Below, one piece after another: positions 36,028 through 44,393 of a DNA stretch of 64,000 nt. Location: NCBI GenBank assembly GCA_045636325.1, contig JAZTXH010000009.1, positions 59,479 to 123,478 of the forward strand, written 5' to 3'. A program made the translations under genes and the position numbers. The stretch is from Clostridia bacterium (lineage in GTDB: Bacteria; Bacillota; Clostridia; UBA1381; UMGS1253). The notes beneath the pieces were generated by a model that was not told where the DNA came from, ran no database searches, and saw only the letters and a program-made list of their open reading frames with translations. Each line of letters begins with the position of its first letter. Within the stretch, counting starts at the first letter, position 1.

Positions 36028-39000
36028 TTAAAGCTCAACATATCCGTCAAACACTTTGACTGCCTCACCGGTCATAAATACATCCTCATCAGTATATTTT
36101 ATGTGAAGCTCACCGCCGCGAAGTTTAACCTTAATATCTTCGTTTTTGGGGCAATATCCATTTTCAACTGCCGCCACAACCGCCGCACATGCACCGGTTC
36201 CGCATGCCCATGTTTCGCCGTTGCCGCGCTCCCACACACGCATTCTTATGGATTTGTCATCCATAACACAAACAAACTCAACATTTACTCTTTCTGGAAA
36301 CAACTCGCAATTTTCAATTTCAGGACCAATTTTTTCAATGTCCATTTTTTCAATGTCATTACTGAATATAACGCAATGGGGATTTCCCATTGAAACGCAT
36401 GTAATATCGTAGTGTTTTCCTGCGATTTCTACACTGTGGCAAACAACTTTTTCTCCATCAATATTTACCGGAACATCTTCCGGCTTAACAGAAGCTTGAC
36501 CCATATCCACAGCTGCCATAAACACACTGTCATTCTTTAAAAACACCTTAAGTGTTTTTATGCCGCTCATTGTTTCTATCTTCATAACATCCTTTTTAAC
36601 AATGCCTTTATCATAAAGGAATTTTGCCACACAACGTATAGCATTGCCACCCATCTTGCCTTCGCTGCCGTCAACATTGAATATGCGCATTTTTGCATCT
36701 GCCGCATCGGAAGAATAAATAAGCACCACGCCGTCTGCACCCACAGAAAATCTTCTGTCACACAAACGAATAGCAAGTCCTTCAGGATTATCTATCTTTT
36801 GCTCCATACAGTTAATATAAATATAGTCATTACCACAGGTATGCATCTTTGTAAACTGAATCTTAAGCTTATCTTCACGCATACTGTTTATATCAACAAT
36901 CTCAGTTGTATGCTCCGAATAACGGCTCATCAGACTGTCTGCTATTGCATTGGCAGTATCAATAGAAGTAAGACACGGAATATTTCTTTCTACTGCCTTT
37001 CTTCTTATCTTAACACTGTCACGTGTGGGAATTCTTCCCTTTGTAGATGTTGAAATAACATAGCTTAGCTTACCACTTTCAATAAGCTCGAGAGTGTTAT
37101 TATCACCCTCATGAATTTTATTTACAACGCTTACTTCAAGACCTGCATCTCTTAAAACCTTTGCTGTTCCCCTTGTAGAGTAAAGCTCAAATCCCATATC
37201 AGAGAATTTCTTTGCTAGGTCAAATACTTCGCTTTTATCAGAATCACGAACAGTTATAAATACTCCGCCTGTTTTATTGAGTTTATATCCGCTTGCTGCA
37301 AGACCTTTATAAAGCGCCTCCTGAAGATTCTGAGCAACACCCAAAACCTCACCGGTAGATTTCATTTCAGGGCCTAACTGGTTATCCACATTAATAAGCT
37401 TTTCAAAACTGAATACAGGCACCTTAACCGCCACATAAGACGAAAGCTTATAAAGACCTGTTCCATAACCCATATCCTTAAGCTTTTCGCCAAGCATAGC
37501 ACGGGTAGCAAGGTCAACCATGGGAATTCCCGTTACCTTACTGATATAAGGAATTGTTCTTGATGCTCTGGGGTTAACCTCAATAACATAAAGCTCGTCA
37601 TCATATATAACATACTGAATGTTAACAAGCCCATAGGTTTTCATTTCGACCGCAAGGTTTTTAGTACATTCAATAATTCTGTCACGCATTTTGTCATCAA
37701 GATTAAATGCAGGATATACCGCAATTGAGTCTCCCGAGTGAACACCCGCGCGCTCAATATGCTCCATAATGCCGGGAATTAATATTTCTTCACCATCACA
37801 TATAGCGTCAACCTCAATTTCCGTACCCATAAGATATTTATCAATAAGCACCGGATTTTTAATGTTCTGTGCAAGAATAATTGACATATATTCTCTTACA
37901 TCTTCATCGGAAAATGCGATAATCATATTCTGTCCGCCAAGAACGTATGAAGGACGCAAAAGCACCGGATAACCAAGCTTATGAGCAACATCCAGCGCTT
38001 CACATGCCGCCATTACAGTGTAACCGCTGGGACGTTCAATATGAAGCTTTTCCAAAAGCGCATCAAAACGTTCTCTGTCTTCTGCCATATCAATACTGTC
38101 AGCAGATGTACCAAGAATGTTCATTCCTATTTCATCAAGATAATTTGTAAGTTTGATTGCAGTCTGACCGCCAAATGCTACAACAACTCCAAAAGGATTT
38201 TCTGTTTTTATAATATCTGTTACATCTTCTTTTGTAAGCGGCTCAAAATAGAGTCTATCTGATGTATCAAAGTCTGTTGAAACAGTCTCAGGGTTATTAT
38301 TTACTATAACAACATCATATCCAAGCTCTTTAAGTGCCCATACACAATGAACAGATGCATAGTCAAATTCTATACCCTGACCAATTCTTATAGGACCTGA
38401 ACCAAATACTATAATTGTCTTCTTTTTATCTTTTTTATTTTTCAAAAATTCTTCTGCTTCGTTTTCATCATCAAATGTTGAGTAGAAATACGGTGTCTGT
38501 GCTTCAAACTCAGCCGCACAAGTGTCAACCATTTTAAACACTGCGCTTCTCTTGTTTATAATCTTCTGACCTGAAAGTCTTTCAATAACACTATCCATAT
38601 ATCCAAGCTTCTTTGCTTCAATATAAAGCTCGTCTGTAAGCGTTTCACTTTCAAGACGCTTCTGCATATTAGAAAGATTCAAAAGCTTGTATAAGAACCA
38701 GTTATCAATTTTTGTTATATCATTTATTTCTTCACAGCTTACCCCACGATACAGCGCTTCATATACCATGAACAAACGAAGGTCATTACAATCATAAAGT
38801 GCTTCATGAAGTTCTTCATCTGTCTTTGATTTTGCACCCTTATAGCTTAAAGTATCAAGTGAAATTTCAGCGCCGCGAACAGCCTTCATCATTGCAGCTT
38901 CAAAATTATCAGCAATACTCATAACCTCACCGGTAGCTTTCATCTGTGTTCCAAGAGCACGCTTTGCATATACAAACTTATCAAATGGCCATTTGGGGAA

Positions 39001-40068
39001 TTTAACAACAACATAATCGATAGAAGGCTCAAAACAAGCATATGTTGTTCCCGTAACGGCATTTTTAATTTCGCTTAATTCATAACCGATAGCAATTTTT
39101 GCTGCAACCTTCGCAATCGGGTAACCTGTCGCCTTTGAAGCCAACGCTGATGAACGTGAAACTCTGGGGTTAACCTCAATAACTGCATATTCAAAGCTGT
39201 CAGGCTTTAGTGCAAACTGACAGTTACATCCGCCTTCAATTCCAAGCTCGTTAACAATTGCCAAAGCTGCACTTCTTAACATCTGATATTCTTTATCAGA
39301 AAGTGTAACTGCCGGTGCAACAACTATTGAGTCCCCTGTGTGCACACCAACAGGGTCAAAGTTTTCCATGCTGCAGACAGTAATTGCATTTCCCTTACTG
39401 TCACGGATAACTTCAAACTCTATTTCTTTCCAGCCAGAAATACATTTTTCAACCAATACCTGATGTATGGGCGAAAGGTCAAGCCCATTCTGGCAGATTT
39501 CTTTCATTTCTTCATCGTTATTTACAATACCGCCGCCAGTACCTCCAAGGGTAAATGCAGGTCTTATAATAACGGGATATTCAATCTCATGAGCAAAAGC
39601 CATACCGCTTTCCAAATCATTTACAACAGTTGACGGGATACACGGCTGATTAATTTTATCCATCATATCCTTAAACATCTGTCGGTCTTCAGCGCGGTCA
39701 ATTGTTTCAACTCGTGCACCCAAAAGTTTTACACCATGTTCTTCTAAAAAGCCTTCTTTTGCGAGTTTCATAGACATTGTAAGACCTGTCTGACCGCCAA
39801 GAGTTGACAAAAGGCTGTCAGGCTTCTCTTTTTCAATAATTCTTTTAAGTGTTGTAATATCAAGGGATTCAATATATATTTTATCCGCCATTTTATTATC
39901 TGTCATAATTGTTGCAGGATTTGAGTTTACCAAAACAACCTCAAGCCCATCTTCTTTTAAAGCACGACATGCCTGAGTTCCCGCATAGTCAAATTCAGCT
40001 GCCTGACCAATGACAATAGGTCCAGAGCCAATAACCATTACTTTCTTTATATCCTTATTAAGTGGCAT
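36028..40068 (-). CDS. carB: carbamoyl-phosphate synthase large subunit fused in frame to a DapF-like (diaminopimelate epimerase fold) domain
   Basis: 1346 aa. Residues 1 to ~1062 are canonical CarB (two ATP-grasp halves plus an MGS-like domain). The last ~284 aa carry DapF blocks FTKMHTCGNDYI, NVDGSEGKMGGNAIRC, SMGNPH and ERGNGETWACGTGACA. Confidence 0.9.
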   Translation of the reverse strand: MPLNKDIKKVMVIGSGPIVIGQAAEFDYAGTQACRALKEDGLEVVLVNSNPATIMTDNKMADKIYIESLDITTLKRIIEKEKPDSLLSTLGGQTGLTMSMKLAKEGFLEEHGVKLLGARVETIDRAEDRQMFKDMMDKINQPCIPSTVVNDLESGMAFAHEIEYPVIIRPAFTLGGTGGGIVNNDEEMKEICQNGLDLSPIHQVLVEKCISGWKEIEFEVIRDSKGNAITVCSMENFDPVGVHTGDSIVVAPAVTLSDKEYQMLRSAALAIVNELGIEGGCNCQFALKPDSFEYAVIEVNPRVSRSSALASKATGYPIAKVAAKIAIGYELSEIKNAVTGTTYACFEPSIDYVVVKFPKWPFDKFVYAKRALGTQMKATGEVMSIADNFEAAMMKAVRGAEISLDTLSYKGAKSKTDEELHEALYDCNDLRLFMVYEALYRGVSCEEINDITKIDNWFLYKLLNLSNMQKRLESETLTDELYIEAKKLGYMDSVIERLSGQKIINKRSAVFKMVDTCAAEFEAQTPYFYSTFDDENEAEEFLKNKKDKKKTIIVFGSGPIRIGQGIEFDYASVHCVWALKELGYDVVIVNNNPETVSTDFDTSDRLYFEPLTKEDVTDIIKTENPFGVVVAFGGQTAIKLTNYLDEIGMNILGTSADSIDMAEDRERFDALLEKLHIERPSGYTVMAACEALDVAHKLGYPVLLRPSYVLGGQNMIIAFSDEDVREYMSIILAQNIKNPVLIDKYLMGTEIEVDAICDGEEILIPGIMEHIERAGVHSGDSIAVYPAFNLDDKMRDRIIECTKNLAVEMKTYGLVNIQYVIYDDELYVIEVNPRASRTIPYISKVTGIPMVDLATRAMLGEKLKDMGYGTGLYKLSSYVAVKVPVFSFEKLINVDNQLGPEMKSTGEVLGVAQNLQEALYKGLAASGYKLNKTGGVFITVRDSDKSEVFDLAKKFSDMGFELYSTRGTAKVLRDAGLEVSVVNKIHEGDNNTLELIESGKLSYVISTSTKGRIPTRDSVKIRRKAVERNIPCLTSIDTANAIADSLMSRYSEHTTEIVDINSMREDKLKIQFTKMHTCGNDYIYINCMEQKIDNPEGLAIRLCDRRFSVGADGVVLIYSSDAADAKMRIFNVDGSEGKMGGNAIRCVAKFLYDKGIVKKDVMKIETMSGIKTLKVFLKNDSVFMAAVDMGQASVKPEDVPVNIDGEKVVCHSVEIAGKHYDITCVSMGNPHCVIFSNDIEKMDIEKIGPEIENCELFPERVNVEFVCVMDDKSIRMRVWERGNGETWACGTGACAAVVAAVENGYCPKNEDIKVKLRGGELHIKYTDEDVFMTGEAVKVFDGYVEL

Positions 40069-41293: not shown

Positions 41294-41326
41294 AAAGAGC
41301 AGAGTGAATACCATCCTCTGCTCTTT
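41294..41326 (-). other. stem-loop at the predicted 5' end of the carA transcript
   Basis: AAAGAGCAGAG-11 nt-CTCTGCTCTTT: perfect 11-bp arms starting a few nt downstream of the -10. Confidence 0.5.
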
Positions 41327-41327
41327 T

Positions 41328-41356
41328 ATTATACACTATTTCTAAAAAAATGTAAA
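41328..41356 (-). promoter_or_regulatory. sigma-A promoter of carA-carB::dapF
   Basis: Minus strand reads TTTACA (41351-41356), a 17-nt spacer, then TATAAT (41328-41333). Confidence 0.6.
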
Positions 41357-41367
41357 GCAATTTAACA
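41351..41367. promoter_or_regulatory. TnrA/GlnR-type box overlapping the carA -35
   Basis: TGTAA-AGCAATT-TAACA matches TGTNA-N7-TNACA at all fixed positions. Confidence 0.55.
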
Positions 41368-41464: not shown

Positions 41465-41728
41465 CTAAATACATATCCTGTAATAGATAATCGGATTTTT
41501 AAAAAATGCATCCGCTCTCTTTTGCTTTATTTCCATTTTTAAATCAAAAACACTGTCTTTCAAACCATTTCTAATCATATCTTTGCTTTTTATTTTTAAA
41601 ATAAAAGGTGAAAAATATTTAAAATCCGCACACACATAATAACATCCGTCAAATAATGCTGACATCTTATACTTCACAGCTGTTATTCCATTTTTAATTT
41701 TGCTGTTATAAAATTTTTCAGCAAGCAT
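41465..41728 (-). CDS. small hypothetical protein (87 aa)
   Basis: ATG preceded by GAAAGGAGA 8 nt upstream, plus a consensus promoter ~100 nt further upstream. No recognisable domain. Confidence 0.5.
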   Translation of the reverse strand: MLAEKFYNSKIKNGITAVKYKMSALFDGCYYVCADFKYFSPFILKIKSKDMIRNGLKDSVFDLKMEIKQKRADAFFKNPIIYYRICI

Positions 41729-41843
41729 AAAAAATCTCCTTTCAAAAAAAAACGCGAAATCCATACTTTTACATAAAAAAAGACATCCGGATACAATAAC
41801 CTAATGTCTGTGTATGCAAATTTTCATCACACATATTTATTAT

Positions 41844-41872
41844 AGTATATATTACACTAACATATTTGTCAA
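41844..41872 (-). promoter_or_regulatory. sigma-A promoter of the 87-aa ORF
   Basis: Minus strand reads TTGACA (41867-41872), a 17-nt spacer, then TATACT (41844-41849). Confidence 0.6.
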
Positions 41873-42139
41873 TAGCTTTATCCTAATTTTGGCGAAAAAA
41901 AGCAATTTTTAATAAGTTTTTTAAAATTTTTTATAGATTTTTTTATTCCTTGGAATTTGAATTCTTTTTAATTTTGTTTCTTAAATTATAAAATTATAAT
42001 TTATAACACACCTTAACATATTTTTTAATCAAGCTTGTCCCTCAAGCTTAATATAGCCAAGCTTTTACTTAATAAAATTAAGTTTACTGTGCTTTTTATT
42101 TGTTTTAAAAAGACATTTACTCACCTTTTTAAAAATCCG

Positions 42140-42168
42140 TTGACTTTTTATATGAATCCGTGTATACT
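42140..42168 (+). promoter_or_regulatory. sigma-A promoter of the type III glutamine synthetase gene
   Basis: TTGACT (42140-42145), a 17-nt spacer, then TATACT (42163-42168). Confidence 0.7.
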
Positions 42169-42192
42169 GTAAAATGTAAAATTGTTAAACGC

Positions 42193-42209
42193 TGTGATTG
42201 GTGTTCACA
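42193..42209. promoter_or_regulatory. TnrA/GlnR-type box in the glnN leader (also the stem of a terminator-like hairpin)
   Basis: TGTGA-TTGGTGT-TCACA is a perfect match to TGTNA-N7-TNACA. The extended 9-bp stem at 42189-42213 is followed by a T7 run ending at 42219, 25 nt before the ATG. Confidence 0.6.
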
Positions 42210-42244
42210 GTGTTTTTTTAATCATTTGAAAGGGGCATTGATAA

Positions 42245-44341
42245 ATGAAAAATATTCCCGATTTATTTGGCTCAATGGTTTTTAACACTCACGTTATGCG
42301 TGAGCGTCTGCCTAAATCAACATATGATGAGCTTCTCAAAGCGATAGATGAAGGTCTTCCTTTAGAGCCGGAAGTTGCAAACGTTGTTGCAAATGCAATG
42401 AAAGACTGGGCTATAGAAAAAGGTGTAACTCATTATACTCACTGGTTTCAGCCTATGACTGGTATTACTGCAGAAAAGCACGACAGCTTTATATCACCCT
42501 ATGGTGAAGATTCCGTTATAATGGAATTTTCCGGAAAAGAATTAATTAAAGGCGAGCCTGATGCATCAAGCTTTCCTTCCGGTGGTCTTCGTGCAACATT
42601 TGAAGCAAGAGGCTACACTGCATGGGACCCCACATCCTTTGCTTTTATAAAAGATAACACCCTTTGTATTCCCACTGCTTTTTGCTCATACACCGGCGAA
42701 GCACTTGACAAAAAGACTCCTCTTCTGCGTTCAATAGAGGTTATTGATAAGCAGGCAATGAGAATTCTGCGTCTTTTTGGAAATACAACCGCAAAAAAAG
42801 TTATTACAACCGTTGGTCCTGAGCAGGAATATTTCCTTATAGATAAAAAGCTTTATGATGAAAGAAAAGACCTTATTTATACCGGCAGAACTCTTTTCGG
42901 TGCTCCTGCACCAAAAGGTCAGCAGCTTGATGACCATTATTTCGGAACAATAAAACCTAGAGTTGCCGCGTATATGAAAGAGCTTGATGAGGAGCTCTGG
43001 AAGCTTGGTGTTCTGGCAAAAACAAAGCATAACGAGGCAGCTCCTGCACAGCATGAGCTTGCACCCATATTTGCTACAACAAATATTGCAACCGATCACA
43101 ATCAGCTTACAATGGAAATAATGAAAAGAGTTGCCACAAAACATGGTCTTGTATGTCTTCTTCATGAAAAACCGTTTCAGAGCGTAACCGGCAGTGGCAA
43201 GCACAATAACTGGTCACTTTCCACCGATACTGGCGAAAACCTTTTAAAACCCACAAGTAAGCCCCATGAAAACAAGCAATTTTTACTTTTCCTTTGCGCT
43301 GTTATCAAAGCAGTTTATGAACATCAAGATTTACTCAGAATTTCAATTGCCAGCGCAGGGAATGATCATCGTCTTGGTGCTGACGAGGCTCCGCCCGCTA
43401 TAGTTTCTATGTTTATAGGCGATGATTTGGAAGAAGTTTTGAATGCAATTGCAAACGATAAAGAATACATAAAGAACGCAACAAAATATATTGACAGCGG
43501 CACACATGCATTGCCAGATTTGAAAAAGGACACAACAGATCGTAACCGCACATCTCCATTTGCATTCACCGGAAACAAATTTGAGTTTCGTATGCTTGGC
43601 TCTTCTTTCTCTGTTGCCGCTCCCAATACAATTTTAAACACCATAGTTGCAAGTGTATTGGACGAATTTGCAACAGAGCTTGAATCAGCAAATGATTTTT
43701 CATCTGCGGTCGACGCCCTCATCAAGAAAACTGCAAAAAAATACAAAGATATTATTATTTTCAACGGCAACAACTATTCTGATGAATGGGTAAAAGAAGC
43801 TGAAAGACGCGGCCTTTACAACTTAAAAACTACTCCTGATGCAATTCCTCTTCTTACAAGCAAAAAGAATGTTGATTTGTTCACAAAATACGGTGTTTAT
43901 TCTGAAATTGAACTTCATTCAAGATGTGACATACTTTTGGAAAACTACTCAAAAATACTAAACATCGAAGCAAACACGATGCTTGAAATGGCCAAGAAAG
44001 ATATTCTGCCTGCAGTTATCAGCTTTACAAAAGAGCTTGCTGAAACATTAAATGCAAAAAAGACTCTTTCTTTAGATGTTTCATGCTTTGCAGAAGAAGA
44101 ACTTTTAAAGAGAGTTTCTCTTCTTTCTGAAAATCTCTACCGCAGAATCCAGACTCTTGAAAAAGCGGTTTCGGGCGCAAAAAATGTATCCGATACAGAA
44201 AAACTTGCCGTATATTATAAAGACAAAGTTCTTTCGGCAATGAATTACCTTCGCGAAAGCGCAGATACTTTAGAAACCATCGTTGGTGAAAAATACTGGC
44301 CATTCCCCTCTTACGGAAAGCTTTTGTTCTCAGTCAACTGA
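42245..44341 (+). CDS. glnN: glutamine synthetase type III
   Basis: 698 aa. GSIII-type N-terminus (FGSMVFN…[12 protein letters not shown]) and length. Confidence 0.9.
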
Positions 44342-44354
44342 TTTAAAGATAAAA

Positions 44355-44393
44355 CAAAAAATCAACTTCAAATTAATGAAGTTGATTTTTTTT
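44355..44393. terminator. bidirectional terminator between glnN and pgsA
   Basis: AAAAAATCAACTTC-aaattaat-GAAGTTGATTTTTTTT. Confidence 0.85.

Follow-up and report, generated by a model that had tools for sequence, protein, structure and literature searches.

A probable relic of an ANTAR-type antitermination leader upstream of a clostridial glnN gene

Introduction

The closest known counterparts of the element discussed here are the RNA targets of ANTAR regulators, represented by EutV, NasR, AmiR and NitR. The hairpins bound by ANTAR proteins follow a hexaloop rule, with A and G as the first and fourth loop nucleotides, and the published motif is defined by two tandem hexaloop hairpins with a short linker (PMC3369931). 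The eut terminators are overlapped in their 5' portion by a 13-mer, AGCAANGRRGCUY, and predicted ANTAR RNAs upstream of Firmicutes glutamine synthetase genes are already found in the supplement of the same study (PMC3369931). For nitrogen metabolism, the ANTAR protein NitR of Clostridium saccharobutylicum is reported to induce the GS/GOGAT genes, acting by antitermination under nitrogen limitation (PMC6316151), and C. thermocellum has a homologous gene cluster that has also received discussion (PMC4676874). Leaders of nitrogen genes under ANTAR control are already a known kind of element, and the element described below is a decayed derivative of this kind. It comes from a window (the whole stretch of DNA that was analysed) of 64 kb, in which the leader of a glutamine synthetase gene occupies the position of an ANTAR-target leader, yet has its hairpin destroyed and the terminator alone left.

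The glnN locus and its terminator hairpin

The glnN gene of the window is preceded by a short leader containing the following features.

42140..42168, + strand: glnN promoter, -35 TTGACT, 17-nt spacer, -10 TATACT (consensus scan, 10/12 matches)
42140-42145, + strand: -35 hexamer TTGACT (direct reading)
42163-42168, + strand: -10 hexamer TATACT (direct reading)
42187..42215, + strand: terminator hairpin, 5' arm AAACGCTGTGA, loop TTGGTGT, 3' arm TCACAGTGTTT (scan)
42189-42197 / 42198-42204 / 42205-42213, + strand: the same hairpin as first written, ACGCTGTGA / loop TTGGTGT / TCACAGTGT (direct reading)
42213..42219, + strand: terminator T-run, U7 (direct reading)
42228..42235, + strand: ribosome-binding site GAAAGGGG (direct reading; also in the relative L161, by alignment)
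42245..44341, + strand: glnN, type III glutamine synthetase (GSIII), 698 aa (Pfam GSIII_N, Gln-synt_C, Gln-synt_C-ter)

The GSIII_N domain is recognized in the open reading frame at 42245-44341 with E = 1.4e-82 (Pfam). The initial annotation had placed a TTGACT-17-TATACT promoter before this gene, and it is found as stated; TTGAC and TATACT are moreover invariant in an alignment of the window with six relatives of 74-87% GSIII identity. Beyond the -10 hexamer the sequence reads directly as GTAAAATGTAAAATTGTTAA, then ACGCTGTGA-TTGGTGT-TCACAGTGT, TTTTTT, the ribosome-binding site and an ATG at 42245. Assuming a transcription start 7 nt past the -10 hexamer, at about 42175, the leader would be about 70 nt in length. 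Such a leader had been considered too small for a riboswitch or T-box, a view upheld by the Rfam searches, in which no family matched the window or 17 relatives at the gathering score, and leader regions searched at E values of up to 5 gave chance-level matches only.

The leader carries the defining feature of an intrinsic terminator, a G-C-containing stem-loop directly before a U-run. The stem at 42187-42215 consists of 11 pairs, four of them G-C, closed by a 7-nt loop (consensus scan), or of 9-11 bp depending on the extent counted. This hairpin is both the minimum free energy and the centroid structure of the 81-nt leader (RNAfold; z = -2.28), and 6 of 200 shuffles of the same 81 nt fold as well as the real sequence. 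Its predicted energy is -14.0 kcal/mol, as against -22 to -28 kcal/mol for the corresponding terminators of relatives. The terminator-like hairpin first noticed in a leader of ~70 nt is thus borne out, both by the stem and T-run themselves and by a homologous, covarying terminator in the leaders of more than 100 relatives. Its T-run needs a small correction: seven T had been counted after the stem, where six follow TCACAGTGT, and seven are obtained only with the last T of the stem included (42213-42219).

Its 9-11 bp G-C-containing stem, 7-nt loop and U7 liken the element to ordinary intrinsic terminators and constitutive attenuators, and it lies ~12-45 nt into the transcript, as in constitutive leader attenuators. 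Unlike ordinary terminators, it is situated between a strong promoter and the only gene of that promoter and, unlike the terminators found at operon ends, it appears to descend from a regulated switch.

Hexaloop hairpins overlapping terminators in related Clostridia

The ancestry of the leader was approached through 168 glnN loci, among the matches listed, which were assembled by scanning genomes and metagenomes and by looking up the nearest proteins in the database. The genome and metagenome scans contributed relatives of at most 69% identity among the matches listed, and closer relatives, with 74-87% GSIII identity, were obtained by protein search and contig look-ups. The closest of the loci collected is L161 (87% GSIII identity to the window), followed by L162 (80%) and L164-L166 (74%).

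Of these 168 loci, 165 have enough upstream sequence to be assessed, and in at least 103 of them a small hairpin of the form NNNC-AAnGGC-GNNN, identified under strict criteria, overlaps a terminator directly upstream of glnN; about 15 further loci fit the design by eye in a looser listing. The commonest form is ACAGC-AAAGGC-GCUGU. The small hairpin occupies the position that the window's own hairpin has, downstream of the same promoter. Its loop and 3' arm double as the 5' arm of a long hairpin, which is followed by a U-run, and the two folds would exclude each other.

Both helices are supported by covariation in the relatives. For the small hairpin, 92.6% of alignment cells are paired, and 50 cells are changed on both sides compared with 14.9 in shuffles, none of 500 shuffles reaching the observed number of double changes; pairing collapses in slid registers. 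As this first set of hairpins had been selected for pairing, the test was repeated on instances picked by the loop motif alone, where 29 of 47 proved fully paired against 11.3 with shuffled partners (maximum 20). For the terminator, 96% of cells are paired and compensatory changes occur in 11 of 13 pairs. The small hairpin folds at about -6.5 kcal/mol in the nascent 5' part of these transcripts.

Several features tie the relatives' leaders to the ANTAR-target RNAs named above. Their motif, AGCAAAGGCGCUG, fits the ANTAR 13-mer at 11 of 13 positions; the hexaloop has A1, G4 and a conserved closing C-G pair; the hairpin overlaps the 5' arm of the terminator; a gene for an ANTAR response regulator is adjacent; and the targets are glnN, amtB-PII and GOGAT/glnA. 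An ANTAR homologue is encoded in the short flanks of 46 glnN loci, 40 of which possess strictly canonical leaders, while most of the remaining six show the leader motif in looser form. In L162 and L164-L166, glnN is divergent from an operon with purA, a GSI-type glnA and a receiver-ANTAR protein of 188-189 aa (ANTAR domain E = 8.8e-16, Pfam), to which GOGAT genes are added in L164-L166; carA and carB lie downstream in the divergent operon of L162, and amtB-PII is located 3' of glnN in L162, L165 and L166. The hairpin-terminator design recurs before amtB-PII (L162, L165) and before the GOGAT-purA-glnA-ANTAR operon (L164, L165), so that the ANTAR-type leaders of L162, L164 and L165 define a local regulon. 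These further leaders are located at L162 8119-8172, L165 9114-9165 and 6641-6589 (- strand), and L164 6632-6583 (- strand), and contain GCAC-AACGGC-GUGC, ACAC-AAAGGC-GUGU and GAAC-AACGGC-GUUC, each overlapping a terminator.

The relatives depart from the published ANTAR motif in one respect: they have a single hairpin a few nt past the transcription start, not a dual one. A second hexaloop hairpin was detected in 4 of 87 unique canonical leaders, where chance alone would give 5.9. Nor could an upstream partner be accommodated in half of the leaders, since a -10-like hexamer there ends 6-15 nt ahead of the hairpin. By analogy with the described systems, these single-hairpin leaders would nevertheless be bound by the ANTAR protein. 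The transcript of related Clostridia would accordingly begin a few nt before the small hexaloop hairpin with its A1 and G4; the ANTAR regulator, encoded beside the GSI-type glnA, would hold this hairpin, thereby blocking the terminator and allowing transcription of glnN, and transcription would stop where the hairpin is not so held.

Loss of the small hairpin in the window

Between the -35 hexamer and the start codon, the leaders of the window and of L161-L165 can be aligned throughout, with CGCTGT invariant and the distance from the -10 hexamer to ...GCTGTGA amounting to 29 nt in window and relatives alike. On this alignment, the window leader is the positional homologue of the relatives' leaders. 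What remains of the small hairpin is the following.

42180..42190, + strand: degenerate remains AATTGTTAAAC of the ANTAR-type hairpin, covering its 5' arm and hexaloop (in-register ungapped alignment; relatives ACAGC-AAAGGC)

In its restored form, the segment corresponding to 42180-42190 would read ACAGCAAAGGC. With ACAGCAAAGG having become AATTGTTAAA in the window, the ANTAR-type hairpin is lost: the sequence AATTG-TTAAAC-GCTGT is unpaired and has U1 and A4 at the loop positions, so the A1/G4 hexaloop feature is absent. The divergence is unevenly distributed, with the hairpin 5' arm and loop identical at 3 of 10 positions between the window and L161 (2/10 with L162), the terminator 5' arm at 6/7 (5/6 with L162), and the terminator 3' arm with its T-run at 20/20 (14/21 with L162). 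The nascent 5' segment of the window transcript is predicted to be unstructured, at 0.0 kcal/mol against the value of about -6.5 in relatives, and folding revealed no alternative antiterminator upstream of the window terminator. The terminator is kept, and of the overlap that is clear in relatives nothing is left to compete with it.

A covariance model built from 40 canonical leaders, which scores those leaders at 40-66 bits, gives the window leader 12.3 bits (E = 2) through terminator positions only, and the leader was accordingly rejected as a detectable member of the family; nothing else in the 64-kb window scored significantly. A scan of the window for AA-type hexaloop hairpins with a T-run found none in a leader or intergenic position. 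The partner genes are missing as well, tblastn of the 64-kb window returning no ANTAR, GSI glnA, amtB-PII or purA. The L161 locus is likewise without glnA-ANTAR; it has a 7-bp upstream hairpin with the non-consensus loop CGAUAC, and its terminator loop carries a 15-nt insertion.

The interpretation favoured here, and considered probable, is that 42187-42219 represents the terminator portion of what was once an ANTAR (NitR-type) leader of glnN, now a relic that probably serves as an unregulated attenuator. The locus would have lost the ANTAR gene along with its other targets (glnA, purA, GOGAT, amtB-PII), whereupon constraint on the sensor hairpin would have been relaxed, substitutions would have erased it, and the terminator would have been retained in a weaker form. 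It is presumed by extension that the regulator is absent from the rest of the genome. In the present-day transcript, starting at ~42175, the hairpin at 42187-42215 would form unopposed, a fraction of polymerases would terminate at 42213-42219, and the rest would reach glnN. On this view, the element is most likely now a partial attenuator without regulation, lying behind a strong promoter and releasing a leader transcript of ~45 nt.

Alternative fates of the terminator

It is unlikely that the terminator is still regulated by some other trans factor, be it an sRNA pairing with the 5' arm, an ANTAR protein that has diverged and is encoded at another locus, or an RNA-binding protein of another kind. 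An ANTAR gene could lie elsewhere in the genome, beyond the 64 kb searched, and a strong terminator without regulation would seem a waste ahead of a gene for nitrogen assimilation; strong termination is conceivable for a predicted -14 kcal/mol hairpin with U7, and would be surprising before a gene that the cell needs if there were no mechanism of read-through. Between the window and L161 there is strict conservation of the terminator arms and U-run alongside divergence of the adjoining 10 nt, and L161 itself retains its 7-bp upstream hairpin with a different loop. The complete identity of the 3' arm and T-run could suggest a terminator still under selection, and hence still regulated, but the intergenic background shared by the window and L161 is itself high (86% upstream of carA), so terminator conservation is weak evidence either way. 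Against a hidden regulator stand the lack of an alternative structure upstream of the window terminator, the lack of an A1/G4 hexaloop hairpin before it, the absence from leader positions throughout the window of AA-type hexaloop hairpins with a T-run, and the failure to find a candidate regulator in the 64 kb; furthermore, where the window and L161 diverge, their sequences have no motif in common.

Less likely again is that the hairpin no longer terminates appreciably, and is either mainly a 5'-proximal stabilizer of glnN mRNA or a functionless structure that has not yet decayed. Stem-loops close to the 5' end can protect Firmicute mRNAs, and this one lies ~12 nt from the predicted 5' end, with a stem that is weaker than those of relatives by the energies given above. 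Its 9-11 bp, four G-C pairs and immediate U7 are nonetheless a good fit to the intrinsic-terminator consensus, and a U-run, needless for stabilization, is fully kept in L161.

The TnrA/GlnR-type box

The nucleotides of the terminator stem and loop can also be read as DNA, in the following form.

42193..42209, no strand assigned: TGTGA-N7-TCACA box TGTGATTGGTGTTCACA (pattern search, perfect TGTNA-N7-TNACA)

The perfect box described in the initial annotation is confirmed at these coordinates, about +18 to +34 with respect to the predicted start, a slight shift from the +20 to +35 first given. It had been taken as a possible DNA operator acting as a repressor roadblock; on this reading a nitrogen repressor of the TnrA/GlnR type (MerR family) would bind it, maybe in concert with a second box at carA and in addition to the terminator function. 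Protein-dependent antitermination of the ANTAR/NitR type, to which the relatives point, is not among the readings of that annotation. The likeness to Bacillus TnrA/GlnR operators is formal but real, there being a 17-bp match before a glutamine synthetase gene and a second match overlapping the carA promoter. TGTNA-N7-TNACA occurs five times in the window against 1.39 expected, a mild enrichment at a count that 0 of 100 shuffles reach. Three of the five are inside long open reading frames (713, 2332, 8260), leaving as the only intergenic boxes those at 41351-41367, before carA, and 42193-42209, both perfect over 17 bp and flanking nitrogen genes at a distance of 842 bp from each other.

Despite this, the operator reading gains no support from the comparison, and it is regarded as very improbable. 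The half-sites belong to the conserved RNA stem GCUGUGA/UCACAG, which covaries in relatives and whose GCUGU also serves the upstream hexaloop hairpin as its 3' arm, TCACA being the complement of TGTGA in the 3' arm of the terminator. What separates the half-sites is the terminator loop, which measures 8, 9 or 10 nt in the five relatives keeping both TGTGA and TCACA; L161 has TGTGT as its left half and a gap of 24 nt. Among the matches listed, 1 of 168 loci has any TGTNA-N7-TNACA in the 300 nt preceding glnN. Unlike Bacillus operators, therefore, the box and its spacing are unconserved in orthologous leaders, and its half-sites are explained by RNA pairing. A perfect match results from the conserved stem sequence GCUGUGA/UCACAG together with a loop that by chance is 7 nt long; on these comparisons, the box before glnN was most likely produced fortuitously by the stem and the length of its loop.

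The centre of the box and the lineage of the window add to this. The Bacillus TnrA/GlnR consensus has an A/T-rich centre, TGTNANAWWWTNTNACA, which the inner positions of TGTGATTGGTGTTCACA, reading TTGGTGT, do not fit. No tblastn match to a MerR-type GlnR/TnrA was obtained in the 64-kb window, a weak test with B. subtilis TnrA and GlnR as queries. Unlike the Bacilli, the lineage of the window is clostridial, with Oscillospirales-like relatives, and it is in such organisms that ANTAR nitrogen control is documented. A CRP-type site (TGTGA-N6-TCACA), whose half-sites are identical to those of the window box, was dropped owing to its wrong spacing, the window spacer being 7 nt and not 6; the argument from non-conservation applies to it also.

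The box near carA must be judged together with the promoter of that gene.

41356..41351, - strand: carA promoter, -35 TTTACA (consensus scan)
41333..41328, - strand: carA promoter, -10 TATAAT (consensus scan)

The claim of a second perfect box in this intergenic region is correct as to its existence, and the box is kept in L161, but it lends little independent support to an operator. It overlaps the carA -35 hexamer, its right half, TTACA, being simply part of TTTACA, and it is kept within a block that is ~86% identical overall. Some protein may bind at this site.

Least credible of all is the proposal that, after loss of a NitR-type ANTAR protein, the terminator stem was taken over as a TnrA/GlnR-like operator, its loop having shrunk to 7 nt, although, if true, this takeover and the carA -35 box would mean that nitrogen control had moved from the RNA to the DNA level with the nucleotides involved staying the same.

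Neighbouring features

A number of observations on the surrounding sequence are recorded in their own right. An ATG-TAA (42174-42179) coincides with the predicted start of transcription in the window glnN leader, with the counterparts TTG-TAA in L162 and GTG-TAG in L163. A start-stop mini-ORF at this position was dropped as inconsistent across more distant relatives, and the ATG-TAA is probably merely the conserved initiating sequence TGTAAA. Upstream of the promoter, the palindrome CTTAATAAAATTAAG at 42068-42082, ~60 nt from the glnN -35 hexamer, is a candidate protein-binding site. CTTAAyAWWATTAAG is also found upstream of glnN in L161, L162 and L167 and within the leader in L164-L166; the 1.17 Mb of loci contain only 10 copies, and those near these glnN genes make up 6 of them. 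Directly 3' of glnN, a bidirectional terminator (44356-44391), whose 15-bp stem is flanked on either side by A- and T-runs, occupies the place of the amtB-PII gene in relatives.

The gap between carA and glnN spans ~1.1 kb and holds a small unannotated ORF. A conserved minus-strand promoter, TTGACA-17-TATACT (41872..41844), is present in this region; in relatives it drives purA, a gene absent from the window. Next comes a terminator-like hairpin with its U-run, AGACAU..AUGUCU (about 41774-41809). An ORF of 87-99 aa (41465-41764, - strand) lies beyond it; this has a good ribosome-binding site but gave no match in Pfam. At the predicted carA transcription start, a hairpin of the form GAGCAGAG-N11-CUCUGCUC (41297-41323) precedes UUUGUGU in the carA sense; the block is kept in L161 with changes in the loop only, and has no Rfam match. 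The possibility that the carA leader contains a PyrR site was set aside for want of an Rfam match. Finally, carB (36028-40068, - strand) encodes a protein of 1346 aa with a C-terminal fusion to a diaminopimelate epimerase (DapF) domain, an arrangement also present in L162.

Concluding remarks

Two points of wider relevance emerge from the comparison. An operator match located inside a leader can come wholly from a conserved RNA stem, and comparative spacing separates the two readings. In addition, the more than 100 single-hairpin ANTAR-type leaders make up a large class without an Rfam family in gut and rumen Clostridia, one that precedes glnN, amtB-PII and GOGAT/glnA operons. Under the favoured interpretation, that of a relic terminator, the locus described here would be an antitermination switch caught in decay, with the regulator gene and the sensor hairpin gone from it while the terminator persists before a nitrogen-assimilation gene.
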